A stretch of DNA of 64,000 nt, taken from NCBI GenBank assembly GCA_964627195.1, contig CAZVJU010000001.1:9066-73065 (forward strand). Direction: 5' to 3'. The notes beneath the pieces are model-generated. The model made no database searches. It worked only from the letters and a program-made list of their open reading frames with translations, and was not told where the DNA came from. A program made the position numbers and the translations under genes. Of the stretch, positions 5,366-47,570 are shown piece by piece (within the stretch, counting starts at the first letter, position 1; each line of letters starts with the position of its first letter). The stretch is from an uncultured Gammaproteobacteria bacterium (lineage in GTDB: Bacteria > Patescibacteriota > Microgenomatia > UBA8517).

Positions 5366-5400
5366 TATTATTACTAATTCTACCTCAAAATCTGAAGAAG

Positions 5401-5525
5401 TTTATAACAGCATTCAAGAAAGCTCCAGGCTTTCAGCCTGGAGATGAATTGAACGCTGTTCGTCATCCTCTTTAGAAGAAACCCCCGAGTCATACTCGGG
5501 AGAGGATGTTATTAACTCTCGGTTT
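5401..5525 (+). repeat. Two-hairpin repeat element, copy 1 (family also at 37161-37276 and 55536-55651)
   Basis: Shares TTTATAACAGCATTCAAGAAA, ATGAATTGAACGCTG and CATCCTC...GAGGATG blocks with the other copies. Its apical stems are CTCCAGGCT/AGCCTGGAG and CCCGAGT/ACTCGGG. It overlaps the last codons and the stop of the NUDIX gene. Confidence 0.85.
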
Positions 5526-5930
5526 AAAGTAGTCAGGAAGTTCTGAAAAGTTTTTTAATTCCTCTTTGGTAAACCACCTTACCTCCTCCTGATCTTCAAG
5601 TGGTTTAGCTTTTCCGGATTTCCACTTACACAAAAATGTTAAACCAACAACATGATGTCCACTAACTCTGGTAAAACCATCGTTCTCAATTAATATTACT
5701 TCATCTTCTATCTCAATTCCTACCTCTTCCATCACCTCTCTTTTTAAAGTACTTTCCAATATTCCCCTTCCTTCTTCCAAATCTACCTTTCCTCCAGGAA
5801 CCGACCAAACTCCTGGTGCTTGCGGATCGTTTACACTTCTTTTCGCCAACAAAATCTTTCCGTCTTTTTCAACAAAAGCGAATACTGCAACGACATGAGT
5901 AGCAATATCTGTTTCTTTGGGTTTATTCAT
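5490..5930 (-). CDS. NUDIX hydrolase
   Basis: Nudix box GGKVDLEEGRGILESTLKREVMEEVGI (GX5EX7REUXEEXGU). Confidence 0.85.
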   Translation of the reverse strand: MNKPKETDIATHVVAVFAFVEKDGKILLAKRSVNDPQAPGVWSVPGGKVDLEEGRGILESTLKREVMEEVGIEIEDEVILIENDGFTRVSGHHVVGLTFLCKWKSGKAKPLEDQEEVRWFTKEELKNFSELPDYFKPRVNNILSRV

Positions 5931-6540
5931 AAATCTTTACAATATAGGCCAACCACGGACTTCCATTTTCAGGGACAATTCGTCTTTTCCTGTATACACT
6001 AAAACCGGCTTTTGAAAGTTCGCTTTCAAATTCCTCTTGACCCCATAGGCTATAATACCGTCCTGGCCTACTCTCCTCCATATTCAAATTTCCTTCCATA
6101 ATAGAGATAAACCCAAAAGAGCCCTTTTTAACGCAACTCTTAATTTTATTAAATGCCTTTTGCAATTTATTCTTCGGAATGTGTATCAACACTGCACAAG
6201 CCCAAAAAACATCAAATGAATTAGAGGGAAATTCCATGTCAAAAATATTTGTTTTAAGAATTTTGATACCCGGAATTTTTTCCTTGACTATTCTTATAAG
6301 ACCTTCTGCAGGCTCAACTCCAATGTAGTTTTCCAGTCCAAAGTGTCTGATAAGTTCAGGTGCATCCGGCCCGATGCCTACTCCAATTTCTATAATCTTG
6401 CCTGAAGGAGCTAGATCAATAATTTTCTTCCGATCCTCTTTAAATCTTTCATCACTACCATGTTTCTTAACCCTCTCGAAAGCATGGGTATCGTAGTAAT
6501 TTATCGTTTTAAGCTCTTTTGCCGTTAGTTTGATATTCAT
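5923..6540 (-). CDS. Class I SAM-dependent methyltransferase
   Basis: Motif I IIEIGVGIGPDA, with downstream acidic and hydrophobic motifs typical of Methyltransf_11/25 proteins. Confidence 0.75.
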   Translation of the reverse strand: MNIKLTAKELKTINYYDTHAFERVKKHGSDERFKEDRKKIIDLAPSGKIIEIGVGIGPDAPELIRHFGLENYIGVEPAEGLIRIVKEKIPGIKILKTNIFDMEFPSNSFDVFWACAVLIHIPKNKLQKAFNKIKSCVKKGSFGFISIMEGNLNMEESRPGRYYSLWGQEEFESELSKAGFSVYRKRRIVPENGSPWLAYIVKIYE

Positions 6541-6546
6541 ATAAAT

Positions 6547-7551
6547 CTAGTGATACTTTTTTTCATTTTTGACAATTTCTCGGGCAGTAGTCAGTACTTT
6601 TTCTACTGCCTGATCAAACTGCAATCCTTCAATTACTGCAGCAGAACTGTCTCTGTGTCCACCCCCACCGAGTTCTCTTGCAATTTTTTCAGTGTTAAAA
6701 CGCCCGGCAGAACGGAAACTAACCATCAGTTTATTCTTCTCCTCTTCAACCATTAAGATACCAAAATCTCCTTCGCGCGTGCTCCCAAAAAACATATTTG
6801 CGGTTTGATTTTTCGCGGCTTCAGGTCTTCCACAATTGTCAAAAACATCGACTGGTATTGCACTCCAGAGAAAACTAAGGTCTTTTTCAAATTTTAATCT
6901 ATACAAAACCTCGCCGATAAATCTCACTAAACTAATAGGCATTCTTGCGAAAAGCTGATCGGTTATAAATTGCCGATCTGCTCCTGCTTTTATCAAAGTG
7001 GCAGCAGTTTCTAACGTCCGATCAGTAGTAAGAGGAATCTTAAAGCAAAGTGTATCTCCTATTATGCCGGATAAAAGTGCTGTAGCCGTACTCTTATCTA
7101 TCTCAAACTCCCAATCCCGGAAAATCTGATACAAAACCTCGGAGCACGAAGAAACTTGAGGATCAATAAGTGAAATATCGGTAAATTTTTCCCGCGGTTC
7201 ATGGTGATCGATTTGAATCTTATAAATACCTTTAGGTGGAATAGAAGTTTTGTCCCCGGTTACAAAATCCCAGCTTGGGGAATCCAAAATCAAAAAAAGA
7301 TCATAATCCAGAAAGTTAAATTCTTTATAATGTATCACCTTAATTTCTTCACTAAAAGGCAAAAAACCAACTACCTCGGGAATCGGATAGGGACTTATCA
7401 TTTGTACTTCCTTGCCAAGTTTTTTTAATACTGAGTATAAAGCAATTGCACTGGAAACCGAATCCGGATCTGGCCGTCGGTGGCAATTGATAAGAATTTT
7501 TTTAGCCTTTATTATCGTCTCTAAAATATCCTTTGATTCTTTGTAAGTCAT
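6547..7551 (-). CDS. DHH/DHHA1 phosphoesterase (NrnA-like oligoribonuclease / pAp phosphatase)
   Basis: Motifs HRRPDPDS, DHH (QIDHHEP) and a C-terminal GGGGH. Confidence 0.85.
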   Translation of the reverse strand: MTYKESKDILETIIKAKKILINCHRRPDPDSVSSAIALYSVLKKLGKEVQMISPYPIPEVVGFLPFSEEIKVIHYKEFNFLDYDLFLILDSPSWDFVTGDKTSIPPKGIYKIQIDHHEPREKFTDISLIDPQVSSCSEVLYQIFRDWEFEIDKSTATALLSGIIGDTLCFKIPLTTDRTLETAATLIKAGADRQFITDQLFARMPISLVRFIGEVLYRLKFEKDLSFLWSAIPVDVFDNCGRPEAAKNQTANMFFGSTREGDFGILMVEEEKNKLMVSFRSAGRFNTEKIARELGGGGHRDSSAAVIEGLQFDQAVEKVLTTAREIVKNEKKYH

Positions 7552-9158
7552 TGCGAGTGGGTAAGCTTATATAGAGTTACGCCTGCAACCTCCCATTGGT
7601 TTTCAACTTTAGTCCAGCCGAAATTGGCGATTTCTGCTTTTGGATTGTGCGTTGGATCGCATAAAAAATTCGGGAGCTCGCAAATAACAAAAAGTTGATC
7701 GGTAATTGTATCACCTGCACGCTGCGGGTCAATCTTCACCAAGGGTGCACCCCATACTTCCAAAAAATACTGGTATGCCCCTTCGTAATTTCTTTCAGCA
7801 ATAACCGCTAGGTTGAATTCCCTACTTTGTGATTCATCCACTATTTTTTGCGCAACCTCGGTAGTTCTTTGTAACTGCCTATTCGGCGGATATCGGAGAG
7901 GACTGAAACGAATATTGAGAAGGATGAGAAAAATTACTGCTGTAAAAATAATTAAATATGTCAACCAGTGCAATAACACTATTTTTTCTTTGGCACTCCC
8001 TATTAGTGTAGTAACCAGCCCGCCGAAAAGCATAAATGGTGCCGGGAAGAAAAAGCCATAATAATGATCATATATCTCCTGTTTGTAAAGCCCTAATCCC
8101 ACAAGGGCAACCCCCAACCAAACAAAAAGTAACAAGAAAGCATGAATATCTTTGTTATGAAGCAGTTTCACATTTTTCAATAACCTAACGATTAAAAGCG
8201 TAATTCCCAAGGCAAAAAATAAAGACAAAAACTTGCCGACCAAAAAGTACATGCCACTTAATAACCGTGTATTAATTTTTTCAACAATTGGCCACAGTTT
8301 AGGCACTGCCGTCCAAGGCCTTATTGACACCGTAGTTTGACGCTCGAAAAAAAACCGCTTGACTGCCGAAAAATTCCTCCATCCATGCCGAGCATCGAAA
8401 AGTGCTAGGGGGCTCATTAAAAGTAAAAAAATAAGCGTAGAGTATATAGTATTTTGTATAAAGTATTTAGTATTTTTTGTTTTTCTAAGGTGTAAAAATG
8501 CCAGGAACCAAAATACCCCTATTACCGGTGCCAAGAGTAAACCAAGATAATGCGACTGAAGAACAAAAGAGTAAGATACTCCAAGAATTATTAACCACTT
8601 CAATTCATTAAATCGCCATATTCTCCAAACCGAATAAATACAAAGTAATGCAAAAAAAGGCATAATATTCGGATTCCAGGAAGAATGGGAATAGACAATA
8701 ACAATCGGAGCAGTTGCATATAAAAGGCTGGCCAAAAATGCAGCTAATTTACCAAACCATTCTCGGGTAACATACCAAACAAAAAATACTGTCGCCAAGC
8801 CCAAAAGTGCAACCATTACTGCAGGCCCAACAGGAGAAAAGTTTGCCAATAAAAGTGCCGGAGCCATCATGTAGTAATACAAAGGGCCCAGGTACATATC
8901 ACCGATTGAGGTTCCGGGCCCGACTAAAATCGGATCAAAATCTACCAGAAGTTTTCTAACGACTATAACGTCTCTACCTTCATCTCCAAGAAAAGTCATG
9001 TATTCGTTGATGCGATAAAGCCGGAGAAATGCTCCTGCAAAAAGTATCATGGCAATAAGAAGTGCTTCGAACCGATTCGTTTTAACCCACTTCATCACAT
9101 TAGTAGTTAGTAGTCTGTAGCTAGTAAATAGGTTTTTTATCATCGAAGCTGATACCAA
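7548..9158 (-). CDS. GT-C-like polytopic membrane glycosyltransferase
   Basis: 536-aa ORF with about 12 TM helices, GDEGRDVIV after TM1 and a soluble C-terminal domain. It overlaps the upstream GT2 gene by 19 nt, so the two are probably translationally coupled. Confidence 0.7.
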   Translation of the reverse strand: MVSASMIKNLFTSYRLLTTNVMKWVKTNRFEALLIAMILFAGAFLRLYRINEYMTFLGDEGRDVIVVRKLLVDFDPILVGPGTSIGDMYLGPLYYYMMAPALLLANFSPVGPAVMVALLGLATVFFVWYVTREWFGKLAAFLASLLYATAPIVIVYSHSSWNPNIMPFFALLCIYSVWRIWRFNELKWLIILGVSYSFVLQSHYLGLLLAPVIGVFWFLAFLHLRKTKNTKYFIQNTIYSTLIFLLLMSPLALFDARHGWRNFSAVKRFFFERQTTVSIRPWTAVPKLWPIVEKINTRLLSGMYFLVGKFLSLFFALGITLLIVRLLKNVKLLHNKDIHAFLLLFVWLGVALVGLGLYKQEIYDHYYGFFFPAPFMLFGGLVTTLIGSAKEKIVLLHWLTYLIIFTAVIFLILLNIRFSPLRYPPNRQLQRTTEVAQKIVDESQSREFNLAVIAERNYEGAYQYFLEVWGAPLVKIDPQRAGDTITDQLFVICELPNFLCDPTHNPKAEIANFGWTKVENQWEVAGVTLYKLTHSQ

Positions 9159-9850
9159 AGTTTTAAAAGATCTCGCACACTTCTTAAAATTACTTTCAAA
9201 TCAGCTCCGGTTTGGTGACCAAATTTTCGGGGATAGTGGTGAACTCCAACTTCGGCAAATCTAAAACCTAACCTTTGAGCTTTCGTTAACATTTCAATTT
9301 GGGTTACTTTCTCTTCTCCAACAAGAGGTTGAACCTTTTCATAGACTTTCTTTCTGATCATCTTAAAACCGCAGGAATAATCTGTTACCTTTAGTCCAAG
9401 TAAAATCCGAGGAAGTATCTTTGCCCAAACTAAGGTAAAAAGTTTGCGTATAAAGGAGTCAGCACGTTTCATTCGAATTCCCAAGATTAAATCTGCTTTT
9501 GTATCCTTTTGCTTCTCGATAAACTTTACAATTTCTGAAAAATCAAACTGTCGATCAATGTCTGCAAAAGCTATCCACGGATACTTCGCTGCTTCATATC
9601 CGGCCTTGAGTGCACCTCCGTAACCTCTATTTGGTTGATTATGAACAACTCGAATATCTCTATACTTCTTGGACAGATTGTCTGCAATTTTTCCTGTAGC
9701 ATCCTTTGAACCATCATCAACAATAATTATTTCCCATTTATCTGCAATTCTTTGCAAAACTTTTTTTGCCTCGAGAATAGTTTTCTTAACGTTTTTCTCT
9801 TCGTTGTAGGCTGGAAAAAAGACTGAAAGCTCTTTAATCAGTTTTGCCAT
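9140..9850 (-). CDS. GT2 glycosyltransferase, polyprenol-phosphate sugar synthase-like
   Basis: Motifs FFPAYNEEKNV, VDDGSKD and ADIDRQ (DxD-like). It is soluble and 236 aa. Confidence 0.8.
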   Translation of the reverse strand: MAKLIKELSVFFPAYNEEKNVKKTILEAKKVLQRIADKWEIIIVDDGSKDATGKIADNLSKKYRDIRVVHNQPNRGYGGALKAGYEAAKYPWIAFADIDRQFDFSEIVKFIEKQKDTKADLILGIRMKRADSFIRKLFTLVWAKILPRILLGLKVTDYSCGFKMIRKKVYEKVQPLVGEEKVTQIEMLTKAQRLGFRFAEVGVHHYPRKFGHQTGADLKVILRSVRDLLKLWYQLR

Positions 9851-9992
9851 GTTTGCATTTGAAGTCTAACATAAACCAAGCAGCCTATTCCAATATAAAG
9901 TGGACTTGACATTATCCAAATAAAAAACGAAAATCTAGACAATGAAAAAGAAAATTATTAAAGGAAAGGTAATAAGTAGAATTATATTACAG

Positions 9993-10442
9993 CTACTTTT
10001 TAAGCAAACTTTTTAAGAAATTTTTATATATATTATTTGAGGTAACAATTCCGACAAGTTCTCCATCATCTATTACAGGCAAACGGCGGATATCGTGAAT
10101 TAAGAGGAGGGAACATGCTGTCAGAATATTATCATCCGAACGAACCGAGATAATATTTTTAGACATTAGACTTCTTGCTTTCAACTTAACAATTCCGCGA
10201 GTTTCTTTTTCGAAGTTTTTGTGGTTCATATAGTAATCAACATTCTTATAAAAGTCATCTTGGGAAGGAAATAGTTTGTAAAAAAGATCTTTTTCTGAAA
10301 TTACTCCCACAACCTTTCCCCTTTTATTTACAATTGGAAGCCCGGAAATTCTTTTCTTGACAAGTAAACGAACGAGTTTAGAAAACTTTGTAGAGGAAGT
10401 GGCAGTTATAACTTTTTTGGTCATTATTTCTTTGACCAACAT
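9993..10442 (-). CDS. CBS domain pair protein
   Basis: Two CBS-like repeats (IMTKKVITA...GLPIVNKRGKVVGVISEKDL and LMSKNIISV...RLPVIDDGELVGIVTSNNI). Confidence 0.8.
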   Translation of the reverse strand: MLVKEIMTKKVITATSSTKFSKLVRLLVKKRISGLPIVNKRGKVVGVISEKDLFYKLFPSQDDFYKNVDYYMNHKNFEKETRGIVKLKARSLMSKNIISVRSDDNILTACSLLLIHDIRRLPVIDDGELVGIVTSNNIYKNFLKSLLKK

Positions 10443-21402: not shown

Positions 21403-21765
21403 ATGGCACATATATGTGACGCAATTGTTGTAACCTGCATAGATTTCCGATTCCAGAAGTACATCCGTGAATGGACTGACCAAAATTTGAAAGATAAAAC
21501 ATTTGACCTTATGGGATTTGCGGGAAGCACAAAAGATTTGGAAACTGTTTTGAAACAAATTGATATTTCTGTAAGGCTTCACCATATTAAGGAAGTTTAT
21601 TTAATACATCACGAAGAATGCGGGGCATATGGAGAGGAAAGTACTCCTGAAAGACACGAGCAAGATCTCAAAAAAGCAGAAAAAGAAGTTTTATCAAAAT
21701 ATCCTCATTTGAATGTAACCCTCTACTATCTTCATCTTGACGGAAGGTTTGAGTCTATTCAATAA
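21403..21765 (+). CDS. Minimal beta-carbonic-anhydrase-like protein (120 aa)
   Basis: C12-I-D-F-R16 (CxDxR) and H70-E-E-C73-G (HxxCG) are spaced about 58 aa apart. This mirrors the beta-CA zinc-ligand pattern, but the chain is much shorter than canonical beta-CAs. Confidence 0.5.
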   Translation: MAHICDAIVVTCIDFRFQKYIREWTDQNLKDKTFDLMGFAGSTKDLETVLKQIDISVRLHHIKEVYLIHHEECGAYGEESTPERHEQDLKKAEKEVLSKYPHLNVTLYYLHLDGRFESIQ

Positions 21766-21767
21766 CA

Positions 21768-21828
21768 TTCACACCAGGTGTGTGATCCAAATTTATATAT
21801 TTGAAAAAGAATCACACACCCGGTGTGG
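21768..21828 (+). repeat. CACACCSGGTGTG nested-palindrome element, copy A
   Basis: TTCACACCAGGTGTGTGATCCAAATTTATAT...GAATCACACACCCGGTGTGG. It is nearly identical to the reverse complement of 30120-30182. Confidence 0.85.
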
Positions 21829-21870
21829 AAAAGTTGTTTAAAAGCTTCAAACGTTATATCATTTTGACAA

Positions 21871-35430: not shown

Positions 35431-35473
35431 AAAGAAATCACATTTTTAAACTTAAATAAAATGTGATTTCTTT
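35431..35473 (-). promoter_or_regulatory. Perfect 16-bp hairpin between pilB and pilC
   Basis: AAAGAAATCACATTTT (35431-35446) pairs with AAAATGTGATTTCTTT (35458-35473). The right arm overlaps the pilB stop codon. Confidence 0.45.
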
Positions 35474-37283
35474 ATTCTTTGGTAACTCGAATTATTTCCT
35501 CTATTGTGGTTACTCCACTTTTCACCTTATCAACTCCGTCATCAAGCATTGTTTTCATACCTGCCTTTTTAGCAATTTCCAAAAGGATTCCAGCATCCTT
35601 TTTGTCTACTATTGCTTCACGTATCTTACGATCAACACTCAGAACTTCGAAAATACCGACCCGCCCCAAATAGCCAGTATAGTGGCAGGGATCACATCCC
35701 TTACCTTTATATATATGACCTTTTAGCGTATCTTTAAATTTATCAAGAATAGAGTCATTTATTCCTGAAATTAGCCCATTTTCACCTAACTCCCCACCTT
35801 GGATAATTTCTTCAACACCCACCGAAATCCTGCACTTCTGACAAATTTTCCTGACCAATCTTTGGCCTATCACTATATTTACGCAAGATGAGATCAAAAA
35901 CGGCTCAACCCCAAGATCAAGCAACCTAGGAAAGGCGGTTACCGCATCATTTGTGTGAAGAGTTGACAAAAGCAGATGGCCCGTCATGGCAGCATTGACT
36001 GAAATATCAGCAGTTTCCTGGTCCCGAATTTCCCCTACCAATATAATATCAGGATCCTGTCTGACTATTGCCCTTAAACCTTTAGCAAAAGTAAGATCGG
36101 TTTTAGGATTAGCCTGAATTTGATTGACGCCTTCGATTCCATATTCAACCGGATCTTCAATAGTCATTATATTAACCTTTCTTTCATTCAGGATTTTTAA
36201 AATTGCGTAAAGCGTCGTTGTCTTCCCACTTCCGGTCGGACCAGTTACCAGGATCATTCCGTGCGGTTTTTTATAGGCATCTTCCAACACTCTGAGATTG
36301 TCCTCAACCAAACCCAAGTCTTGAAGTGAAAATTGGCGGGATTTTTCCGACAGAAGACGCATGACTACTTTTTCTCCATTTGTAATTGGGACAATTGAAA
36401 CTCGAATATCCAAGTCTTCATCTTGGGTAGAGTAGCTTATTTTTCCATCTTGGGAAGACTGATGTTCATCCGTTCTTAGTTTAGCTAGCACCTTCACTCT
36501 AGTAATTATTTGAGAATGAAGTGTCTCAGGAAGTTTAACAATATCGTGCAAAATTCCATCAATACGGAAACGCACAAGCGACATCTGTTTTAAAGGTTCT
36601 ATATGGACATCTGAAGCTGAATTTTGATATGCATATTGGATGATCAAATCAACAATTTTAACTATCGATGGCTCCGGAATCACGGATCCCTTTACTCTCC
36701 GAAGGCTTTCCTTAATTATCGTGTCAAAAACCTCTTCTACATCTTTAGCATACAAACTCAATCCATTTGTGATATCTCTTTTTGATGAATAATAAGGGAT
36801 AACCTTTACCCCAACCTTTTTCTCTACAAACTGAATAGTCTCTTTGTCTAAAGGATGCTCCATTGCTACATGCAATCCCGCTTTGTCCATTTTGAAGGCA
36901 ATCAGTCTTTGTTTTTTGGCATAGATTTCAGGTAACATTTTGGCAACTTTTTCGTCTATGCCGACTGTCGATAAATTTATGTAAGGGACGGATATAATGT
37001 CAGAAATTACTTTACCTACATTCTCATCGGAAATTAATTCTCTATCAACTAAAATTTGTCCCAGAGGAATTTTTTGGTCTTCTGAGTCCTCGGAAGCCTG
37101 GTCTAATTGTGAAGACGGAATTACTCCAAGCTCCTTAAGTTCGTTATATAGATCTTCATTTTTATAACAGCATTCAAGAAAACCACGGGCTTCAGCCCGT
37201 GGATGAATTGAACGCTGTTCGTCATCCTCTTTTTTAGAGGAAACCCCGCCTTTCAAGGTGGGGAGGATGTCATAAAGGCTCAT
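35472..37283 (-). CDS. pilB: Type IV pilus assembly ATPase PilB (GspE family)
   Basis: Walker A GPTGSGKTT, Asp/His boxes, Walker B ILVGEIRD, a C-terminal CxxC...CxxC cluster and a T2SSE_N domain (LGQILVDRELISDENV). The first 41 codons are encoded by repeat copy 2. Confidence 0.93.
   Translation of the reverse strand: MSLYDILPTLKGGVSSKKEDDEQRSIHPRAEARGFLECCYKNEDLYNELKELGVIPSSQLDQASEDSEDQKIPLGQILVDRELISDENVGKVISDIISVPYINLSTVGIDEKVAKMLPEIYAKKQRLIAFKMDKAGLHVAMEHPLDKETIQFVEKKVGVKVIPYYSSKRDITNGLSLYAKDVEEVFDTIIKESLRRVKGSVIPEPSIVKIVDLIIQYAYQNSASDVHIEPLKQMSLVRFRIDGILHDIVKLPETLHSQIITRVKVLAKLRTDEHQSSQDGKISYSTQDEDLDIRVSIVPITNGEKVVMRLLSEKSRQFSLQDLGLVEDNLRVLEDAYKKPHGMILVTGPTGSGKTTTLYAILKILNERKVNIMTIEDPVEYGIEGVNQIQANPKTDLTFAKGLRAIVRQDPDIILVGEIRDQETADISVNAAMTGHLLLSTLHTNDAVTAFPRLLDLGVEPFLISSCVNIVIGQRLVRKICQKCRISVGVEEIIQGGELGENGLISGINDSILDKFKDTLKGHIYKGKGCDPCHYTGYLGRVGIFEVLSVDRKIREAIVDKKDAGILLEIAKKAGMKTMLDDGVDKVKSGVTTIEEIIRVTKE
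37161..37276 (+). repeat. Two-hairpin repeat element, copy 2 (inside the pilB 5' end)
   Basis: The same conserved blocks as copy 1. Its apical stems are CCACGGGC/GCCCGTGG and CCCCGCCTT/AAGGTGGGG. Confidence 0.85.
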
Positions 37284-40370: not shown

Positions 40371-41153
40371 TTAATCTTGATTGCGTATCCCTACAACACA
40401 GGCAAATCTGCCTTGGTGATTTAGAGGCAACTCCCTTTCACGAACATGCGAGAAAAATCTGTTATCGTGAACTGTATCAATATAACAATCGATAATATTT
40501 TTCTCTAAAACTCCGGAGTCAATTATTTGTTTTTTGCATAGTCCTACAAAGTCTACCTTATAGTGATTAGCATCAAGCTGATCAATAAATGGCTGCCATT
40601 CAGAGTCATCAACTTGTGAAGGGTTTTCCTTGATAAAAGAATCCTTGCGAGCAGCAGGACCAAGACCAACAATTACATCCTTGGGATTTGTGTTATAGTC
40701 ATTCTCCAACCTTCTAGTGGCTTTGGCGGCTATTTCCAAGTCCACACCCTTCCATCCCACATGAACCAGTCCCACAACTTCTTTTACTGGATCAAAAAAA
40801 ATAACCGGTAAACAATCTGCGATAAGAAGAAATAAATAGAGATTTTTCTTATCTGTAAGTATTGCATCAACTTTAATTGCATAATTGGAATCCAAAATGC
40901 TTCTTCCGGACCATTTCTTATCGGCAATTACAACCTCATCCTTATGAACAACCCACATACAAACAGTTTCGTCAACCGAAACATCAAGTTTTGTTAAAAA
41001 CCTCTTACGATTAGGAACTACCACTGAAAAATCCTGTACTTTTCCAAGAATCGAGTTAGCCATATTTCCATCTGCCTTTGTTGAAAAAGCATGGAAAAGT
41101 TTCGGAAATTTCAGGAGTTCGGGAATTTGATACATTGAATCAAAAAAATACAC
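40371..41153 (-). CDS. pgeF: YfiH/PgeF (DUF152, laccase-domain) protein
   Basis: Conserved blocks LLIADCLPV, LVHVGWKG and a C-terminal FFSH.R. Confidence 0.8.
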   Translation of the reverse strand: MYFFDSMYQIPELLKFPKLFHAFSTKADGNMANSILGKVQDFSVVVPNRKRFLTKLDVSVDETVCMWVVHKDEVVIADKKWSGRSILDSNYAIKVDAILTDKKNLYLFLLIADCLPVIFFDPVKEVVGLVHVGWKGVDLEIAAKATRRLENDYNTNPKDVIVGLGPAARKDSFIKENPSQVDDSEWQPFIDQLDANHYKVDFVGLCKKQIIDSGVLEKNIIDCYIDTVHDNRFFSHVRERELPLNHQGRFACVVGIRNQD

Positions 41154-41556
41154 CTATTAAAAACCCTGCGGGAAGTAGCCAGATAAAAATATTCAAAATG
41201 AAAAGTAAAGTATTAAAACTGTAAAGAGTTGAGTCCAAAAGGAAAAATGTTATCAAAATCCCGTCTGCTAACAATCCTTGTGCAATTGATCTATCATTCT
41301 TTATAGGTGAAAATTTGTATTTATAGTATAGAGTCGGATTTACTATAAAACTTTTACCTCGCAATTGAAGTGGTTCCTGGTTAAACCTGGCATAAGGAAC
41401 CGGGAAACCCGCATAGTATCCACATTCTAAAAGTTTTATATTCCCACAACCAACATTCATAACAATAAATGAAGAAAGAAGAGAAAGAGCTATTCCTATA
41501 AAAAAGAAAGCGGACAAGGTTAAAGTTTTCTTATTAAAACCGAACTTTTTGTTCAT
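41140..41556 (-). CDS. Hypothetical membrane protein
   Basis: 138 aa with an N-terminal TM, a Cys-containing loop and C-terminal TM helices. I recognise no family. Confidence 0.5.
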   Translation of the reverse strand: MNKKFGFNKKTLTLSAFFFIGIALSLLSSFIVMNVGCGNIKLLECGYYAGFPVPYARFNQEPLQLRGKSFIVNPTLYYKYKFSPIKNDRSIAQGLLADGILITFFLLDSTLYSFNTLLFILNIFIWLLPAGFLIGVFF

Positions 41557-41617
41557 ACGTTAATATTGCTTTATTATACATTCATAATGATAAGTCAGGA
41601 AACGGAATGTGCGATTT

Positions 41618-41716
41618 TGCCTAATGTGCGGCGATATATCCGAAGTACCGCCACGGTATGCGTCTGGTTTGGATTATATCAAAAACTTGAGACATTTAGG
41701 ATATACCGCAGTTAGG
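41618..41716 (-). other. attC-like site with canonical core / inverse-core heptamers
   Basis: The minus strand reads GCCTAAC-T-GCGGTATATCC ... GGATATATCGCCGC-AC-ATTAGGC, with an inner hairpin TACCG/CGGTA. A further GTTAGGC lies at 41744-41750. Confidence 0.6.
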
Positions 41717-41798
41717 CGATGTCGCGAACGTAAGTGAGTGACGAGCCTAACAAGGCTTTGGCACCGTGCTGTGCGATGTAAATTTTTTATGTTGTCAG

Positions 41799-42323
41799 TT
41801 AATATAATAAATATTTTCTCGCGAATGAAAGTGCGGCAATCGTCTGACAATCTGCAATTTTACCATCGTCAAACATCTGGTATGCTTTAAAAATTGGAAT
41901 TCCTTTTATTTTTAAACCATGCTCGGTATCTTCCAATTTTTGTTTAGTTTTCTCCAAATTATCTGCCAAAAATACTGTGCATTGTTCTGCGCATAGTCCG
42001 CTCCATGGAGTGTATACTCCAAGTTTTTTCCATGACTTTGCAGTGTAACCAAGCTCTTCCTCAAATACTCTTTTTGCTGCTGCTAATGCGGTATAACCTT
42101 TTTCCTGTCCTCCGCCAGGCAGTTCTAGCGTCCATTGTTTTAATGTATAGCGATACTGGTATGTAAAAATTATTTTAGCCTTTTTGATCGGCACAATAAA
42201 TACTGATCGATCGGTCTCTTTGATATGAATAATGAAGTAATTACCTTCTACATGAGTAGGAGTAATGAATTTTTCATGAGACACATGGAACCATTGATTT
42301 TTATATACAACATTTTCAGACAA
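41799..42323 (-). CDS. NUDIX hydrolase (ADP-ribose pyrophosphatase-like), cassette ORF
   Basis: Nudix box GGGQEKGYTALAAAKRVFEEELGY. It uses a TTG start, and an in-frame TGA lies 3 codons upstream. Confidence 0.8.
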   Translation of the reverse strand: MSENVVYKNQWFHVSHEKFITPTHVEGNYFIIHIKETDRSVFIVPIKKAKIIFTYQYRYTLKQWTLELPGGGQEKGYTALAAAKRVFEEELGYTAKSWKKLGVYTPWSGLCAEQCTVFLADNLEKTKQKLEDTEHGLKIKGIPIFKAYQMFDDGKIADCQTIAALSFARKYLLY

Positions 42324-42523
42324 TTTAGTTCATGGTTTCATTTTAATATTATTCTTTTCCATAAAATAAATTAGAGTTATTCCTTATTACCCCTCCTTAA
42401 TAATTAAAATCAAATTTTCATCTCTAATCAATGCGCAAAAGCTTGAAATCTCCAACAAGATAAAAATTTATTTCGTATAATGTTTCGGTGTATGGGAAGT
42501 TTGCCTTATTTTTCCCATTAGGA

Positions 42524-42856
42524 TTAGTAAATTTGCAAACAGCCCAAGGTTTTGTCTTTTTCAAACGAATGAATGTCTTGACTATTTTTTGTCAAAAGTC
42601 GTTTGATGTTTTGAGTGGAAGTGTTACCTGTTCTGAGCCAAATTACCTTGGGAGGATAACCATAAATAAGGCTTCTTTCGTTGAAATCCGAGTCTTGAGT
42701 TACGAGAGTAAAACCATTGTCGCGAGCGTAGTTCCATACTTTCTCATCAGTGGCTGTTTGTAAATCCAGCAGGTAAACGTGGCTTGAACCTGAAAATAAA
42801 ACCTTAAGCTGCTTAACCAGCTTGCGGGAGATGTTTTGATCTAAGAGTAATTTCAT
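42524..42856 (-). CDS. PIN-like putative toxin (DUF5615 / Mut7-C-like)
   Basis: MKLLLDQNISRKLVKQL...VTQDSDF pattern, paired with an upstream DUF433-like gene. Confidence 0.6.
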   Translation of the reverse strand: MKLLLDQNISRKLVKQLKVLFSGSSHVYLLDLQTATDEKVWNYARDNGFTLVTQDSDFNERSLIYGYPPKVIWLRTGNTSTQNIKRLLTKNSQDIHSFEKDKTLGCLQIY

Positions 42857-43076
42857 GACCAGCCGTAGTTAGGGAATGCTCTCTTTCTGACGCATAGGTT
42901 AAAACTGCCTTAATATCCTCTTTGGTTAATTCGGGAAAGTCGCTTAATATTTTCTTTTTACTCATACCTGAAGAGAGCATTTTCAAAACATCATATACGG
43001 TGATGCGCATATCCCGAATAGTGGGTTGACCACCACGTTTACCTGGTTCGATACTGATAATTCCTTTATAATTCAT
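42813..43076 (-). CDS. DUF433-like putative antitoxin
   Basis: The GKRGGQPTIRDMRITVYDVLKML pattern typical of DUF433. It overlaps the toxin gene by 44 nt. Confidence 0.6.
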   Translation of the reverse strand: MNYKGIISIEPGKRGGQPTIRDMRITVYDVLKMLSSGMSKKKILSDFPELTKEDIKAVLTYASEREHSLTTAGHEITLRSKHLPQAG

Positions 43077-43264
43077 AGTTCTTATAATACTATAAACAAA
43101 AAATTAAGGCAAATTTGGACGGAAGAAAATAGCACAAGCTTAGTTTTATTCGAACCGTGCCATTTTTCTGTAACCCCATGTACCGTGTTATACGCCCCGA
43201 GCGAAACGAAGTGTAGCGAGAGCGCAGCGTGGTCGAGCGATAACGAGAAGAAATGGAGGCAAAA

Positions 43265-43516
43265 TTACAAATCTAGATCACCAATCCAAGTATCCACAAC
43301 CAGCTTTTTTGTTTGTTCCAGATAATCGTGAATACCCGTGAATATTTTCTCTCTACCATCTGGCAGAACAACCCTGATACTATCTTCATGTTTAGTATCG
43401 AATACAGACAGAACAAGCTTGTCACCACTCAATACTAATCTCCTAGTGCCGTCATCTCCTTCGACCACTTCAAGTCCATCAACATGAAATGGTATCTCTT
43501 TTGGTTGTTCTGCCAT
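43265..43516 (-). CDS. Hypothetical protein (83 aa), cassette ORF
   Basis: An ORF with GGAGG 7 nt upstream of its ATG. It is flanked by the 14-nt inverted repeat AATGGAGGCAAAAT / ATTTTGCCTCCATT. Confidence 0.5.
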   Translation of the reverse strand: MAEQPKEIPFHVDGLEVVEGDDGTRRLVLSGDKLVLSVFDTKHEDSIRVVLPDGREKIFTGIHDYLEQTKKLVVDTWIGDLDL

Positions 43517-43535
43517 ATTTTGCCTCCATTATTGT

Positions 43536-43698
43536 ATCTAACGTTTCCGAATATGAGAAGTTTTTGGCCGCTTCCTTACTATATTTTAAGAAAAGAAAAG
43601 GGCAAAAATTTGGGTTGAGAAAAATTTGCATACTTATTAATTTAATTGCGCAAATTTTTTGAACCTCATATTCGGTGTTGTGCGAAATAAGGCTCGGC
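43536..43698 (-). other. attC-like site 2
   Basis: The minus strand reads GCCGAGCCTTATTTCGCACAAC-A-CCGAATATGAG ... CTCATATTCGG-AAAC-G|TTAGAT, with an inner 10-bp hairpin AAAAATTTGC/GCAAATTTTT. Confidence 0.65.
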
Positions 43699-43728
43699 GT
43701 TTTTTCAAATATAGATGGAAAGAATTTT

Positions 43729-44013
43729 TTATTTTTTAATAATATAAGATACTAAGGAATAAACGAGATAAACAACCAAGAATGGAATTACTAATAAAGA
43801 AAAAAATTGAAGAATATAATCACTAAAGTAAAAACAACATTTTGGCAAACCTACGTGCTGTGGCCAATGTTCACATTCTATCTTGGGGCAGACTGCCAGT
43901 TTATACCTAATTTGGGAATATTCCCAGACTCTTAAATAATAGTAAATAACAGTTATTACTGTAGATGCAATAATTTTTTTCTTTGTGGGCTTAAAAAATT
44001 CTTTCCAGTCCAT
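43729..44013 (-). CDS. Hypothetical Cys-rich two-TM protein (94 aa), cassette ORF
   Basis: N-terminal and C-terminal TM helices flank CPKIECEHWPQHVGLPKCC. The gene is flanked by a perfect 22-bp inverted repeat. Confidence 0.5.
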   Translation of the reverse strand: MDWKEFFKPTKKKIIASTVITVIYYYLRVWEYSQIRYKLAVCPKIECEHWPQHVGLPKCCFYFSDYILQFFSLLVIPFLVVYLVYSLVSYIIKK

Positions 44014-44076
44014 ATTATTATCTTGGTTAATTGATTAATATAAAGTTTTCTATTTACTCTAGCCGAGCCTTATTTC

Positions 44077-44195
44077 GCACAACGTTCCAGTATATGCGAT
44101 GTTCCGCTACATCCATATTTTATCAAATTAAAAGTTGTAGTGGAATATGGGAGAGCGAAGTGCAACGAGCGAACCGCATACACTGTGTTAAGAGA
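44077..44195 (-). other. attC-like site 1
   Basis: The minus strand reads TCTCTTAAC-A-CAGTGTATGCGGTTCGC ... GCGGAACATCGCATATACTG-GAAC-G|TTGTGC, an imperfect palindrome with bulges. Confidence 0.65.
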
Positions 44196-44275
44196 CCTGA
44201 AGCAAATCAGTTACATTTTTTAAAACTGATTTGCTGAAAGTGCAACGAGGCAAGCAACTGAAAGGAGCGCAGAGT

Positions 44276-44644
44276 TTATTTTTTGTCAGAAGGTTTAATT
44301 TTTGAAAACAAGTGCTGGATAACTAACAACACTAAATAAATTATTGGTATGTAATAAAGAGCCAAAATAATTTTCGAGTAAGGATATTTTCCATAAATAC
44401 TGCAGCAACAAATCTCTGAAGCTTTGAAAACCTCTCCAGTTTTACCTTTGCTGTCATCTATCTTTGTATCAACTCCATCCTCGCAATATTTTTTACATTC
44501 AGGGTTAGCATCCGTCATGCACTGTATAACTCCCACTTGATCTACTCGAAAATTATGAATTGCAATAATTGAGCTATTCACCCCAACAAAAATTACAAGG
44601 GTTGCTAAAACAATTTTTAAATTAAATAAACTTTTCCAATTCAT
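44276..44644 (-). CDS. Hypothetical Cys-rich two-TM protein (122 aa), first cassette ORF
   Basis: N-terminal TM, a Cys-rich middle (CMTDANPECKKYCEDG...CCCS) and a C-terminal TM. Confidence 0.5.
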   Translation of the reverse strand: MNWKSLFNLKIVLATLVIFVGVNSSIIAIHNFRVDQVGVIQCMTDANPECKKYCEDGVDTKIDDSKGKTGEVFKASEICCCSIYGKYPYSKIILALYYIPIIYLVLLVIQHLFSKIKPSDKK

Positions 44645-44674
44645 TTTGAAACTTTTTCTGACAAAAAATAAATT

Positions 44675-44715
44675 TCTCTTAACTACTGTTTGTACGAATT
44701 GTTGTTCGTATAAAC
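44675..44715. other. attI-like region: an 11-6-11 recombinase-type palindrome plus the first cassette junction
   Basis: GTTTGTACGAA-TTGTTG-TTCGTATAAAC (44688-44715), and on the minus strand G|TTAAGAGA at 44683-44675. Confidence 0.5.
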
Positions 44716-44740
44716 GGTATTATTATGATAAAATAATACC

Positions 44741-45549
44741 ATGTTAATCGAAAAATTATAAGAATACTTGCGAATTGCTGGATACAGTGCAGAAACAATT
44801 AAAACATATACTTTGTGTACCCAAAAAATCTATTCCCGCTTCAAAAAACCGCTTAACCTCATCGCTTCTTCCGAATTCGCTGACTTTTTAGACGAGTTGG
44901 TAAAAAGAGGCAATTCCCCTTATACAATAAACCTATACCATGCTTCTCTCAAACTGGTCATAGAAAAAATTTATGATAAGCCTTTTTATTACAAATTTCC
45001 TTACGCAAAAAGACATAAAAAACTTCCCATTGTACTTTCCAGAAGTGAAATCAACTTGATTTTAAATAAAATTATCAATTCCAAACATAAACTTCTTATA
45101 GCGCTGGCTTATGGAGCCGGATTACGGGTAAGTGAAGCGATAGATCTAAAAGTAAAAGATATCGATCTTCAAGAATTAACCATTCATCTTAAAGATGCAA
45201 AGGGGAAAAAAGACAGGATAACGATCATTCCGGAAAAAATTAGATCTGATCTTCAAAATCTGATTGCGGGAAAGACGGCAAACGGTTACTTTTTGAGAGC
45301 GAACGAGGCGGAAGGCTAACAACAAGAACAGCTCAAAAAGTGTTTACATCTTCGATAAAAAAAGTCGGAATTAAAAAGGATGCAACTTTTCACTCCCTCC
45401 GTCATAGTTTCGCGACACACCTTTTCGAAAATGGAGTCGATATCCGCTATGTGCAAGAACTACTTGGGCATGCTAACATCAGAACAACACAGCTTTATAC
45501 CAAAGTTACAAATCCGAAGCTAAAAAATATAAGAAGTCCACTGCGATGA
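44741..45549 (+). pseudogene. Tyrosine recombinase (Xer/IntI-like) with an in-frame stop and a frameshift
   Basis: - Track ORFs 44768..45319 and 45340..45549 are two halves of one gene.
- After NGYFL the +1 frame continues [17 protein letters not shown]...[11 protein letters not shown]...[16 protein letters not shown], and the shift sits at the T5 run 45290-45294.
- Catalytic residues are present: R (GLRVSE), HxxR, H and Y.
- Upstream in frame, ATG 44741 gives MLIEKL, then TAA at 44759-44761, then EYLRIAGYS. Confidence 0.8.
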
Positions 45550-45668: not shown

Positions 45669-46370
45669 ATGAAAATCGATATCTTAACTCTTTTCCCGAA
45701 CATGTTTCACGGGCCGTTTGATGAAAGTATTGTTAAGCGGGCTCGAGATAAAGGTCTGGTGGATATTACTGTCCATAATTTACGGGATTGGGCAGGGGAC
45801 AAACATAAAACTGTGGATGACAGACCATATGGAGGTGGAGTTGGGATGATTTTAAAAGTTGAAGTATTAGATAAGGCCGTAAGTCAATTAGAAATGAAAG
45901 ATTCGGACACAAAAGTTATACTCTTGGACGCAGGCGGTAAAAAATTTACTCAGAAAGATGCAAAAAGATTATCAAAAAGCGAACACCTGATTCTGATTGC
46001 AGGCCATTATGAAGGAGTAGATTATCGAGTCCATAAAAAAATTGCTGATGAAGTAATGTCAATCGGAGATTACGTTCTAACGGGTGGTGAACTTCCTGCA
46101 ATGGTTATCACTGATTCAATCGTTCGCCTTATTCCCAAAGTCCTAGAAAAATCCGAAGCAACAGTATTTGAAAGCTTTTCTCCAACATCCAACATCCAAC
46201 ATCCAACATCTATCCTTGAATATCCTCAATATACCCGACCTGAAGTTTATAAAGGCTGGAAAGTTCCTAAAATTCTCCTCTCCGGAAATCACAAAGAAAT
46301 TGAAAAATGGAGAAAGGAGCAATCTATTGAGAGGACGAAGAAAGCGCGCCCAGATCTTCCTGGTAGATAG
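45669..46370 (+). CDS. trmD: tRNA (guanine37-N1)-methyltransferase
   Basis: Motifs MKIDILTLFPNMF, DDRPYGGGVGM, IAGHYEGVD, GDYVLTGGELPA, EYPQYTRP and LLSGNH. Confidence 0.95.
   Translation: MKIDILTLFPNMFHGPFDESIVKRARDKGLVDITVHNLRDWAGDKHKTVDDRPYGGGVGMILKVEVLDKAVSQLEMKDSDTKVILLDAGGKKFTQKDAKRLSKSEHLILIAGHYEGVDYRVHKKIADEVMSIGDYVLTGGELPAMVITDSIVRLIPKVLEKSEATVFESFSPTSNIQHPTSILEYPQYTRPEVYKGWKVPKILLSGNHKEIEKWRKEQSIERTKKARPDLPGR
46182..46209 (+). repeat. Heptanucleotide microsatellite (CCAACAT)x4 inside trmD
   Basis: Read directly from the sequence. It encodes PTSNIQHPT, inserted just before the conserved LEYPQYTRP block. Confidence 0.9.
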
Positions 46371-47502
46371 CAGTAACGACAAGTCTTTTGCTGTCCAGAA
46401 ATCCGGTGCAGGTATATAAGGTCAATCTCGAATCCTTGGTCTGATCTAATATTCCCGTCTGATTGGCATTAACGATCTGAACATACTCGATTCTGAATTT
46501 TTTCCGAATTCCGTCTGAAGATTTTATTTGAATGATCTGACCCGGTTTTGCTTTTTTCAAATTCCCCAAGATATTTTTATAGTTGTGGCCGTAAAAAATA
46601 GTGTTTCCGGTTTCTCCCGAAATAGCCGAAGGGGTTAAATAAGAAACACCTTTTGTGGTTGTCTCCCACTTCCCGTTATTTATTGCTGCGGGGTAGATAT
46701 CAAGCGTTATCCCCAGTTCACCGAGGGTTAATAAAACCGGTTTATCAGCAGCTTTATCATACTGATCCGACGGTAAAACCTCTGCTTTATTAAATTGAAG
46801 TCTTTGCGGAATAATTCTTCTCCAATATAAAAATCCGGCTAAACAAAAACAAAACAACCCGAGTAAAATAAAAAACTTGGAGATACTTCGCATGTTTACT
46901 CTCTGAGTTTTTTTTTTATAAAGATGAATCCCGAGAAGAATCGATGTTAACCCCAAAAGAACTAACCCATACGGTGTCAGCGCGTCTCCAGTCGCAGCCA
47001 AACCCAGGATAGATCCTTGAGTGCTTGCAGCTGCAGCCAGCACCGTACCAGAAGAACCGCTTGAACCCAATGAAGAGGTAGAAGTACTCGTCCCGCCGCA
47101 ACCGTAAGCACTGTTAAATGCCATGTAGGGTTCAGGGTTAAGCCCCCAAGTTGAACCGTCGGGTATAAAATGCCAACCAAGGTTTTTTAACGTATCGATT
47201 TCTTCCTGTGTTAAAGACCCAATTCTCCACCAATTGGTCTGTATTCCATTCCCTACATCTGAACAAAAACACTGTTGAATTCTATCAACGTCCACGATGT
47301 AAACTGCGTCAGACCCGGAATATGCATTGGGGTCGCCGGGAATCCCGTGAACGCCACTGTCATATTTAACTTTTAACGTCCCTTGAGGATTTGAACAGGC
47401 CGGAAAGTCAGGAGGAGTTTGCTGCGCGTTTACTGAACCCACAAAGACGAAGGTTATCAAAAGAAACACGAAACTCACTAACAGTCTTTTAAGTATTTTC
47501 AT
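46324..47502 (-). CDS. Secreted LAATG-motif protein fused in frame to a sortase (fusion or homopolymer artefact)
   Basis: - Signal peptide MKILKRLLVSFVFLLITFVFVGSVNA.
- A ~115-aa Cys-containing domain and a Ser/Thr-rich linker.
- Sorting signal LAATG, then a TM helix, then KKKTQR.
- Then MRSISKFF, a second TM helix and a sortase domain (FYGHN His, TLYTC Cys).
- The junction is an A10 run on the coding strand (46908-46917). Confidence 0.7.
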   Translation of the reverse strand: MKILKRLLVSFVFLLITFVFVGSVNAQQTPPDFPACSNPQGTLKVKYDSGVHGIPGDPNAYSGSDAVYIVDVDRIQQCFCSDVGNGIQTNWWRIGSLTQEEIDTLKNLGWHFIPDGSTWGLNPEPYMAFNSAYGCGGTSTSTSSLGSSGSSGTVLAAAASTQGSILGLAATGDALTPYGLVLLGLTSILLGIHLYKKKTQRVNMRSISKFFILLGLFCFCLAGFLYWRRIIPQRLQFNKAEVLPSDQYDKAADKPVLLTLGELGITLDIYPAAINNGKWETTTKGVSYLTPSAISGETGNTIFYGHNYKNILGNLKKAKPGQIIQIKSSDGIRKKFRIEYVQIVNANQTGILDQTKDSRLTLYTCTGFLDSKRLVVTAIYQEDLGALSSSSQ

Positions 47503-47570
47503 TGCAATGAAGGCAGGTTTGGGCAGAAGATAACTATGATAGTTTAACATTATAGGACAACTCATGCAAG

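Follow-up and report, generated by a model that had tools for sequence, protein, structure and literature searches.

A cassette array beside a recombinase pseudogene

The window analyzed here is a 64,000-nt stretch (positions 9,066 to 73,065) of contig CAZVJU010000001.1 from assembly GCA_964627195.1, which is placed in Patescibacteriota (Microgenomatia, UBA8517). The genome resembles those of Woesebacteria, members of the candidate phyla radiation. The window is AT-rich (GC content about 0.38) and contains, at 41619-41717 on the minus strand, an imperfect hairpin that a sequence-only reading had taken for an integron attC site. This hairpin is probably a degenerate recombination site, the most distal one of an integron-like array of cassettes in the chromosome (41619-44736, minus strand), in which six co-oriented small genes are transcribed divergently from a tyrosine recombinase gene. 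The main interest lies in the system around the hairpin rather than in the hairpin itself; on its own, the flagged 130 bp is a minor decayed relic. The features of the locus are listed below; the strand in which the array is read is the minus strand, the vertical bar marks the putative crossover point, numbers with the prefix L denote the loci compared, and ORF stands for open reading frame.

41140-41556, minus: flank gene at the outer end of the array, coding for a DUF7670-like membrane protein of 138 aa (synteny in L085, L088 and L091)
41619-41717, minus: the flagged hairpin, probably a degenerate terminal site (sequence, fold, alignment to the covariance model R2)
41673-41681, minus: TGATATAAT, an extended -10-like motif in the hairpin loop, facing the DUF7670 gene 115 nt downstream (sequence)
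41718-41751, minus: proximal GTTAGGC (41751-41745) with a 27-nt spacer, putative start of an ORF-less mini-cassette (exact reverse complement of BoxA 27 nt away)
41760-41798, minus: TACATC-GCACAGC-AC-GGTGCC, a remnant A-half downstream of the NUDIX gene in which a mutation has turned AAC into AGC (read from the sequence)
41799-42323, minus: cassette gene for a NUDIX hydrolase, 174 aa (Pfam PF00293)
42467-43201, minus: site with a toxin-antitoxin (TA) pair between its halves (A-half 43195-43170; B-half 42506-42468, with ATT, A at 42481, for GTT)
42524-42856, minus: DUF5615/PIN toxin (family match)
42813-43076, minus: DUF433 antitoxin (family match)
43265-43516, minus: cassette ORF, 83 aa; perfect 14-nt inverted repeat 43252-43265 / 43517-43530
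43528-43689, minus: intact site W_Sb, GCACAAC-AC-CGAATATGAGG...CTCATATTCGG-AAAC-G|TTAGAT (R2, 81 bits, training member; hidden Markov model (HMM) matches)
43729-44013, minus: cassette ORF, 94 aa, membrane protein; perfect 22-nt inverted repeat 43677-43698 / 44062-44083
44069-44199, minus: intact site W_Sa, TCTTAAC-AC-AGTGTATGCGG...CGCATATACT-GGAAC-G|TTGTGC (R2, 100 bits, training member; HMM matches)
44276-44644, minus: first cassette ORF, 122 aa, membrane protein; perfect 17-nt inverted repeat 44275-44291 / 44656-44672
44669-44736, minus: attI-like site, GTTTATACGAA (44715-44705), CAACAA, TTCGTACAAAC (44698-44688), AGTA, G|TTAAGAGAAAT (44683-44672)
44741-45549, plus: pseudogene of a tyrosine recombinase, XerA/"Cand"-like, lacking the I2 domain (profile matches, alignment)
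45669-46370, plus: trmD, the flank gene on the recombinase side (Pfam PF01746; synteny)

The gene for PgeF lies to the left of the array together with the DUF7670 gene. No family matches are found for the 83-, 94- and 122-aa ORFs. The 22-nt repeat around the 94-aa ORF links the start of the cassette, immediately after G|TT, with the cassette's own BoxA.

The recombinase lacks the integron-specific domain

The recombinase gene is disrupted by a change of CAA to TAA at 44759-44761 (codon 7) and by a 1-nt deletion near 45283; the truncated ORF is the same in L002 and L003, and no second recombinase gene is present in the window. The best family match of the encoded protein is NF040815, archaeal-type XerA, with 209 bits (cutoff 220), and the domains are PF13495 and PF00589. 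The integron-integrase model TIGR02249 yields 188 bits against a cutoff of 265, and the match consists of two stretches that skip the IntI-specific part. In agreement with this, the long IntI-type proteins of L062, L070, L071 and L073 share insertions of 31 aa and 11 aa in alignment A6 that are missing from the window protein as well as from its CPR homologs P0002 and P0023. The additional domain I2 around patch III, which defines IntI and is held to be necessary for attC recombination (PMC7790495, PMC9668308), is thus absent, and, judged by its deduced sequence, the window recombinase is not an IntI. It agrees with the recombinases of candidate phyla that are related to Xer and make up the "Cand" subgroup (PMC8138268). 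Thousands of homologs of 268 aa, with 60-75% identity, are found in Woesebacteria and other bacteria of the candidate phyla radiation (CPR).

A variable slot between conserved flanks

The frame composed of the DUF7670 gene, small genes, the recombinase gene and trmD recurs in three Woesebacteria genomes, and the small genes differ in each: a TA pair and a gene for a 182-aa protein in one (L085-87); genes for proteins of 168/180 aa, a NUDIX protein and proteins of 108 and 127 aa in another (L088-90); and genes for proteins of 65, 174 and 115 aa, an AAA_18 protein and a protein of 82 aa in the third (L091-93). The slot is empty in L094 (5240-6417) and L098 (about 1340-1783), where trmD lies directly beside the DUF7670 gene, with neither a recombinase nor small genes in between; the recombinase and the array are therefore an insertion/deletion polymorphism and not a fixed housekeeping locus. 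Because the slot between the conserved flanks is variable or empty in relatives, the flagged hairpin can be placed at the outer end of the array, directly before the flank gene, so that the location proposed by the sequence-only reading, at the distal end of the co-oriented minus-strand cassettes, holds.

A metagenome scan with the DUF7670 protein returned 6 loci only, and no close relative whose recombinase is intact is among them. The NUDIX cassette of the window has no homology to that of L089 (E = 4.2), and the pair gives no information on cassette boundaries. A recombinase with 74% identity occurs in a different neighborhood in L004, with about 18 co-oriented small genes of unrelated functions upstream, including the same TA pair. 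Contigs often start just upstream of the recombinase gene or end inside a site (e.g., L014 1-33; L021 1-100; starts of L002, L003 and L005-L022), which suggests that the arrays break assemblies, consistent with heterogeneity of the populations or with repeats.

A family of composite sites

The sites that separate the cassettes share a composite structure which, on the array strand, reads (GC-rich stretch)-ACATCnnnTAAC-AC-L''(about 9-11 nt)-GTTCG...loop...CGGAAC-wT-L'-CGAAAC-G|TTAnnnGAAAT. The R box is extended, with 12 conserved nucleotides (ACATCnnnTAAC / GTTAnnnGAAAT), and the spacer is 2-3 nt long in the A-half and 6 nt long in the B-half in all 19 aligned sites. Half-site HMMs, trained without the flagged element and searched against about 1.35 Mb of loci and the window, yield, at E < 0.01, matches in the CPR loci that are all on the strand opposite to a recombinase and upstream of it. 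Apart from these, only three matches reach this threshold, all in a Spirochaetia locus (L031) and located downstream of the recombinase on its own strand. Within the window, the matches are limited to 44198-44070, 43686-43529 and 43195/42506. A covariance model built from full sites, R2, replaced an earlier model, R1, that was made from loop-trimmed sites, could not span the real loops and recovered only half-sites and the attI hairpin. An anchored scan for AAC...GTT stems missed the real sites and found unrelated hairpins, and permutation of the L' boxes between sites gave no information, as the L boxes have a consensus in common.

The two L arms are complementary: in the 19-site alignment, 81% of the cells are paired compared to 25-37% when the partner is slid. 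Thirteen pairs of positions show double changes, none of 500 shuffles attains these values, and the positions of the L stem occur as three to five pair types. The cassettes carry a signature as well, in that the triplet that follows GTTA in one site and the triplet that precedes TAAC in the next are exact reverse complements at 15 of 25 junctions, among them 4/4 in L031 and 2/2 in L026. The complementarity between the extended B box and the next extended A box averages 6.2 of 9 positions, against 4.7 within the same site and 4.4 in all-against-all comparisons. In the window, the complementarity at the cassette ends extends over 17 and 22 perfect bases, up to the start and stop codons; the whole window contains 12 perfect inverted repeats that are 13 nt or longer and have arms 100-1500 nt apart, and 8 of them fall within 42770-44672. 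Across nine loci, gene-scale perfect inverted repeats amount to 1.92 per kb in the arrays versus 0.20 per kb elsewhere. Such a signature is the pattern of integron arrays with exchange at G|TT, which would put the crossover point here at the same position; this placement is also favored because the attI hairpin is fixed beside the recombinase gene and variability begins right after GTTA.

The attI-like site, a dif-like 11-6-11 palindrome followed by a B box, abuts the recombinase start. The consensus GTTTATACGAA-CAACAA-TTCGTAyAAAC-AsTA-G|TTAnnnGAAAT is present next to every recombinase start examined, including L004, L085, L089 and L091, and the window copy is the top non-training match of both covariance models within the window. 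The palindrome itself, GTTTATACGAA-CAACAA-TTCGTACAAAC (44715-44688), is the feature expected of a Xer/dif site and is conserved in four other loci.

The loops of the sites display a consensus ACCCAaATTtgcc-N17-TGaTAAAAT directed toward the next cassette (window 44150-44105; L004 6400-6345; R2 positions 51-90), so that they could be read as promoters for the next gene. Canonical integron cassettes are generally promoterless. In many cassettes, the stop codon and BoxA are separated by a recurrent GC-rich stretch of about 50 nt (..CTCTGCGCTTCGCTC..CGCTGCGCTTTCGCTC..), which interrupts the complementary cassette ends (window 44240-44275 and 43200-43255; L004 7600-7655; L085 9265-9320; L091 8770-8825 and 9470-9530). 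A description of each cassette as one long degenerate palindrome was rejected because the nested repeats are not centred on one point.

Genes are located between L'' and L' in several sites (window 42467-43201; L004 4126-4877, 6886-7594 and 8084-8653; L089 8965-9480). Their products are HicAB, a 108-aa protein, dCMP deaminase and, in three arrays, a TA pair, and each gene has a further inverted repeat around it. Between the window and L004, the identity of the TA module is 86% from ATAAC|AC to CGAwAC|rTTA; the genes upstream of this module differ among three arrays (window, L004 and L085), so its movement does not depend on the unit that G|TT defines. In L004, one gene is flanked by a direct duplication of the A-half.

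The terminal hairpin

On the plus strand, the flagged element reads GCCTAAT (41619-41625), GT, GCGGCGATATATCC (41628-41641), a 57-nt centre (41642-41698) that contains the TACCG/CGGTA mini-stem, and the right arm GGATATACCGC-A-GTTAGGC, with GTTAGGC at 41711-41717; then come 27 nt (41718-41744) and GCCTAAC (41745-41751). The letters agree with those of the sequence-only reading, whose coordinates were one base too low. On the array strand, the element becomes GACATC-GCCTAAC-TG-CGGTATATCC...(TTTTTGATATAAT)...CGGTAC-TT-CGGATATA-TCGCCGCAC-ATTAGGC-AAAAT. Here, BoxA, GCCTAAC, occupies 41717-41711 with ACATC (41722-41718) ahead of it, and is followed by TG, L'' CGGTATATCC (41708-41699), the loop (41698-41642), L' GGATATA(TCG)CCGC (41641-41628), AC, ATTAGGC (41625-41619) and AAAAT. 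Folded as single-stranded DNA, a 114-nt stretch reaches -20.9 kcal/mol on the plus strand (z = -3.6, equaled by 0/200 shuffles) and -17.0 kcal/mol on the minus strand (z = -2.4, equaled by 4/200). The 99-nt hairpin with its inner stem thus folds as had been claimed, and the region contains no credible ORF, only overlapping mechanical ORFs of 42-58 aa. Searches of Rfam at gathering and permissive thresholds give nothing relevant for this element, and neither HMM nor covariance model detects a second copy of it in the window.

The position, strand and part order of this element are those of the cassette-separating hairpin sites, with which it also shares the TATAT core of the L stem. Its extended BoxA, ACATCGCCTAAC, is identical in the bona fide sites L004_7 and L089_1, its extended B box, TTAGGCAAAAT, is similar to GTTAGGCGAAAT, and R2, trained without it, aligns it end to end (41611-41723, minus strand). 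Compared to the consensus, the element carries lesions compatible with decay of a once functional site: the crossover G is replaced by A, AC by TG, the spacer CGAAAC by CGCCGCAC or CAC, depending on the alignment, and the L stem contains a 3-nt bulge. The change of G to A at the crossover position recurs at 42481 in the same array, in the terminal site of L085 and once in L011, and degenerate distal ends are found in other arrays, too (L085, L089 and L091). The remnant A-half at 41760-41798 resembles the extended BoxA of W_Sb (GCACAAC) and that of L089 (ACATCGCACAAC) but falls under the HMM thresholds. In the loop, TGATATAAT matches both the R2 consensus ...UuuGauAAaAU and TTTGATAAAAT, the loop motif of W_Sa and L004_4.

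Parts of the sequence-only reading fare less well. The A in place of the conserved crossover G is there, but its supposed effect of freezing the array end is moot, since the recombinase is already a pseudogene. The designation as a textbook attC site of the mobile-integron consensus does not stand either: the adjoining recombinase lacks the IntI-specific domain, the site family is unlike canonical attC, and the element scores only 10.6 bits with R2, whereas the range is 24-110 bits for genuine sites and 24-85 bits for the independent ones. The 27-nt "mini-cassette" is possible but unproven, because no L'-CGAAAC signature precedes the proximal GTTAGGC (41751-41745), where neither HMM nor covariance model finds a match; a comparable ORF-less stub is present in L089. 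Thus, the observation is real yet statistically weak alone, and the reading behind it is partly supported, being right in spirit (a relic at the end of an array, with a mutated crossover base) and wrong in kind.

Weighing the explanations

Several results weigh against the assignment of the hairpin to the site family and, in part, against the interpretation of the family itself. The R2 score of 10.6 bits corresponds to E = 1.4 window-wide and 0.07 within the array, and random matches in the window reach 14.3 bits, while training sites score 81-100 bits. The A-half HMM gives 4.2 bits (E = 78), and the B-half HMM 8.5 bits (E = 2.7), although the latter is still the top non-training match in the window. 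The flagged R box is self-complementary (GCCTAAC/ATTAGGC), unlike the hybrid boxes that are usual inside the arrays. There is no enrichment of the heptamers, with 4 occurrences of GTTAGGC/GCCTAAC in the window against 5.2 expected, and 111 of GTTRRRY against 137. By themselves, the heptamers are no signal; the sequence-only reading had named background frequency, together with the lack of an attC-model hit, as the finding that would speak against it, and half of that is what the counts give. Only the local arrangement, i.e., the hairpin, its orientation and its position at the array end, exceeds chance, and this arrangement is marginal under the family-specific models. As for the family, the A partners in the covariation set were chosen partly by complementarity, although they do coincide with the next upstream A-motif, and the cassette signature is missing from 10 of the 25 junctions. 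The high conservation of the recombinase across CPR could simply be that of a housekeeping Xer. Neither excision circles nor an empty/filled polymorphism within one species were seen, and the three other assemblies that cover this region (L001-L003) are 100% identical to the window.

Descent of the hairpin from a functional site of this family nevertheless remains, in our view, the probable explanation when set against the alternatives. One of these holds that the hairpin is a canonical attC, so that a 126-nt ORF-less cassette, bounded by G|TTAGGC (41751) and A|TTAGGC (41625), would close a classical integron array whose end is locked by the crossover mutation. The exact GCCTAAC and GTTAGGC cores, with a 99-nt imperfect palindrome between them, agree with this scenario, as do the stub in L089 and the recurrence of the crossover change in other sites; the exact reverse complement of BoxA 27 nt upstream has an estimated chance of about 0.4% in any given 60-nt stretch. 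Of the two attC cores, the inverse core RYYYAAC is matched by GCCTAAC; the distal core, ATTAGGC, lacks the G of GTT. In canonical attC sites, e.g., that of aadA, the spacers are 5-6 nt long. Those of the flagged element measure 1-2 nt, the heptamers are at background, the proximal GTTAGGC is not preceded by the site-end signature, and the recombinase is both damaged and devoid of the IntI insertion, all of which make this scenario quite improbable. It is also rather unlikely, if somewhat easier to entertain, that the hairpin, whatever its origin, now serves mainly as a promoter or 5' leader of DUF7670-pgeF and that the heptamers are incidental. The -10-like TGATATAAT lies on the same strand 115 nt 5' of the DUF7670 start, the loop consensus of the family, similar to TTGcc-N17-TGnTAAAAT, points toward the next gene, and the sequence is identical in the independent assembly L001. 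However, a generic promoter scan performs at chance (14 sites versus 13.5 expected, counts equal to those in shuffles) and does not list this motif, no -35 element accompanies it, the region 5' of DUF7670 is unrelated in L085, L094 and L098, and the flanking boxes would be left unexplained.

A further possibility is that the repeats are paired half-sites of Xer/dif modules recombined as ordinary duplexes, in the manner of integrative mobile elements exploiting Xer (IMEX) or of the pdif modules of Acinetobacter, the flagged element being a decayed pair. The Xer-like affinity of the recombinase and the dif-like palindrome that abuts its gene are in accord with this idea, and the right arm TTATGTGAAAT resembles the XerD arms of the dif sites of E. 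coli and B. subtilis. In addition, the halves are 478-713 nt apart, with genes between them, in 5 of the 19 sites, which strains a simple hairpin model and renders the G|TT rule insufficient; the enclosed genes, the TA module that is independent of its upstream gene, and the duplicated A-half leave room for a duplex, pdif-like component. Nonetheless, the A- and B-halves are not equivalent duplex sites because their spacers differ (2-3 versus 6 nt), and compensatory covariation of L'' and L' is predicted by base pairing but not by protein recognition of separate duplexes, so that recombination purely of this kind is unlikely. Finally, there is very little to recommend a chance hairpin, an element similar to miniature inverted-repeat transposable elements or repetitive extragenic palindromes, or a terminator between the NUDIX and DUF7670 genes. 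The noise-level model scores and the existence of unrelated hairpin repeats elsewhere in the window (5400-5510 and 37160-37270) are as expected under this explanation; against it, the element is single-copy in the window, has no Rfam match and no T-run 3' of the stem, and is not listed by a terminator scan, and chance would have to account at once for its part order, its strand, its identity in the extended BoxA and its place at the array end.

Other features of the window

The hairpin repeats just mentioned are two copies, 81% identical, of a two-hairpin element of about 110 nt. Compensatory changes maintain the pairing (GCCTGGAG/CTCCAGGC versus GCCCGTGG/CCACGGGC; CCCCGAGT..ACTCGGG versus CCCCGCC..GGTGGGG). 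Each copy is located just upstream of a minus-strand gene, and the second runs through the annotated N-terminus of the PilB-like ORF 35472-37283. This element has no Rfam match; a small mobile hairpin and an RNA with a cis-regulatory role are both conceivable. About five tandem copies of the heptamer TCCAACA (46181-46215) are located close to the 3' end of trmD, a gene whose end overlaps that of the convergent ORF 46324-47565. A strong isolated hairpin at 21760-21839, ATTCACACCAGGTGTGTGATCC...ATCACACACCCGGTGTGGAA, scores higher than any other in the stem scan; it has no relation to the site family.

A possible mechanism and its distribution

The mobile unit in this system would begin with the TT of a G|TTAnnnGAAAT box, end with the G of the following one and consist of a small gene and a terminal hairpin-forming site, with BoxA ACATCnnnTAAC, a 2-3-nt spacer, L'', a loop with a promoter-like motif, L', the CGAAAC spacer and BoxB in this order. 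The folded single strand is predicted to mimic a dif-like duplex with a bulged centre, and a short Xer-like tyrosine recombinase would then exchange one strand at G|TT against its own hairpin attI, by analogy with integron integrases acting on attC and with XerC acting on the folded site of the CTX phage. In the window, where the recombinase is a pseudogene, the outermost site would have decayed through the crossover A, the altered spacer and the 3-nt bulge in the L stem; the orientation of its extended -10 motif toward the conserved DUF7670-pgeF genes may be the reason why this motif has persisted.

R2 also finds ORF-site-ORF arrays beside I2-less recombinases in further loci. Five sites with 24-49 bits are detected in a Spirochaetia metagenome-assembled genome (L031, array 5730-10092) and three in Saccharibacillus kuerlensis (L026, 11307-12685); further arrays are found in Paenibacillus (L030), in Nomurabacteria (L033), in L084, and in Flavobacterium enshiense and other Bacteroidota (L040, 11490-19321; L046, L054, L059, L035 and L050). 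In the loci from Spirochaetia, Saccharibacillus, Paenibacillus and Bacteroidota, the sites are downstream of the recombinase on its own strand; the strong site of L033 is upstream, on the opposite strand, like those of the other CPR loci. There is no R2 match in 12 loci with long IntI-type genes, in the flanks of which the presence of arrays is itself unverified.

These observations raise the possibility, which we put forward tentatively and hold to be plausible rather than probable, that I2-less Xer-like recombinases run genuine integron-type platforms, with a hairpin attI, folded attC-like sites whose extended R box is dif-like, site-borne promoters and genes that are sometimes enclosed in the hairpin, in CPR bacteria with genomes of about 1 Mb as well as, to judge by the R2 matches, in Spirochaetia, Flavobacteriia and Paenibacillaceae. 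If so, such systems would either stand between Xer/IMEX and integrons as a pre-I2 intermediate or have arrived at single-strand cassette capture independently. They could then also explain clusters of attC sites without a recognizable IntI, such as CALIN (attC-site clusters that have no integron integrase) and archaeal arrays. A survey of archaeal integrons reports 539 attC sites and only six IntIs in 75 genomes (PMC9668308); speculatively, these numbers would be compatible with I2-less partners that went undetected. Should the arrays be active, the origin of integrons would become directly testable with natural proteins and sites, present surveys would under-count cassette platforms, and CPR bacteria, whose gene exchange is poorly known, would possess a dedicated gene-capture system of their own.

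Comparison with known systems

The I2 helix has been described as the innovation that enabled recombination of single-stranded attC, with an explicit statement on the "lack of intermediates" (PMC7790495). Tools for the detection of IntI demand the I2 domain (PMC4889954, PMC9668308), and very small genomes, of the 1 Mb class, are reported to be without integrons (PMC4889954). Our searches of a literature library found no paper that links integrons or attC sites to CPR bacteria, which is absence of evidence only. The nearest precedent for an I2-less enzyme acting on a folded hairpin is XerC with the CTX phage (discussed in PMC7790495).

The present system shares with integrons short, co-oriented, unrelated genes beside a divergent tyrosine recombinase, with the insertion site next to its gene and a varying cassette content; sites in the form of imperfect palindromes that have ..TAAC / GTT.. 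cores, a spacer left unpaired, an L stem with bulges and covariation, and a variable loop; a unit start complementary to the unit's own inner core; a TA cassette; and a degenerate distal end. The differences are the lack of I2, the 12-nt R box, the unequal spacers of 2-3 and 6 nt, the promoter-like loops, the genes sometimes located in the hairpin, the long perfect inverted repeats that reach the start and stop codons, and the hosts with genomes of about 1 Mb.

With the CTX phage and IMEX at dif, the common features are a hairpin that imitates a dif-like duplex, an I2-less Xer and tandem accumulation beside a dif-like site, whereas the array described here consists of single-gene units with sites between all of them, and the recombinase gene lies within the variable locus (it is absent from L094 and L098). 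The pdif modules of Acinetobacter are likewise small, include TA pairs, possess inverse half-sites of the Xer type and occur in shuffled contexts. However, pdif sites are equivalent 28-bp duplexes, whereas the halves of the sites described here are unequal in their spacers, in 19 of 19 cases, and covary as a stem; moreover, the array is chromosomal and adjacent to a single recombinase gene. Finally, XerA, XerH/difH, XerS/difSL and the "Cand" recombinases agree with the window protein in size and in the combination of PF13495 and PF00589, and have a palindromic 11-6-11 site beside the gene, but these single-recombinase systems have been described for the resolution of chromosome dimers and not for adjacent cassette arrays. 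Taken together, the system would work in the manner of an integron and has the site logic of one, yet without the defining feature of the integrase.

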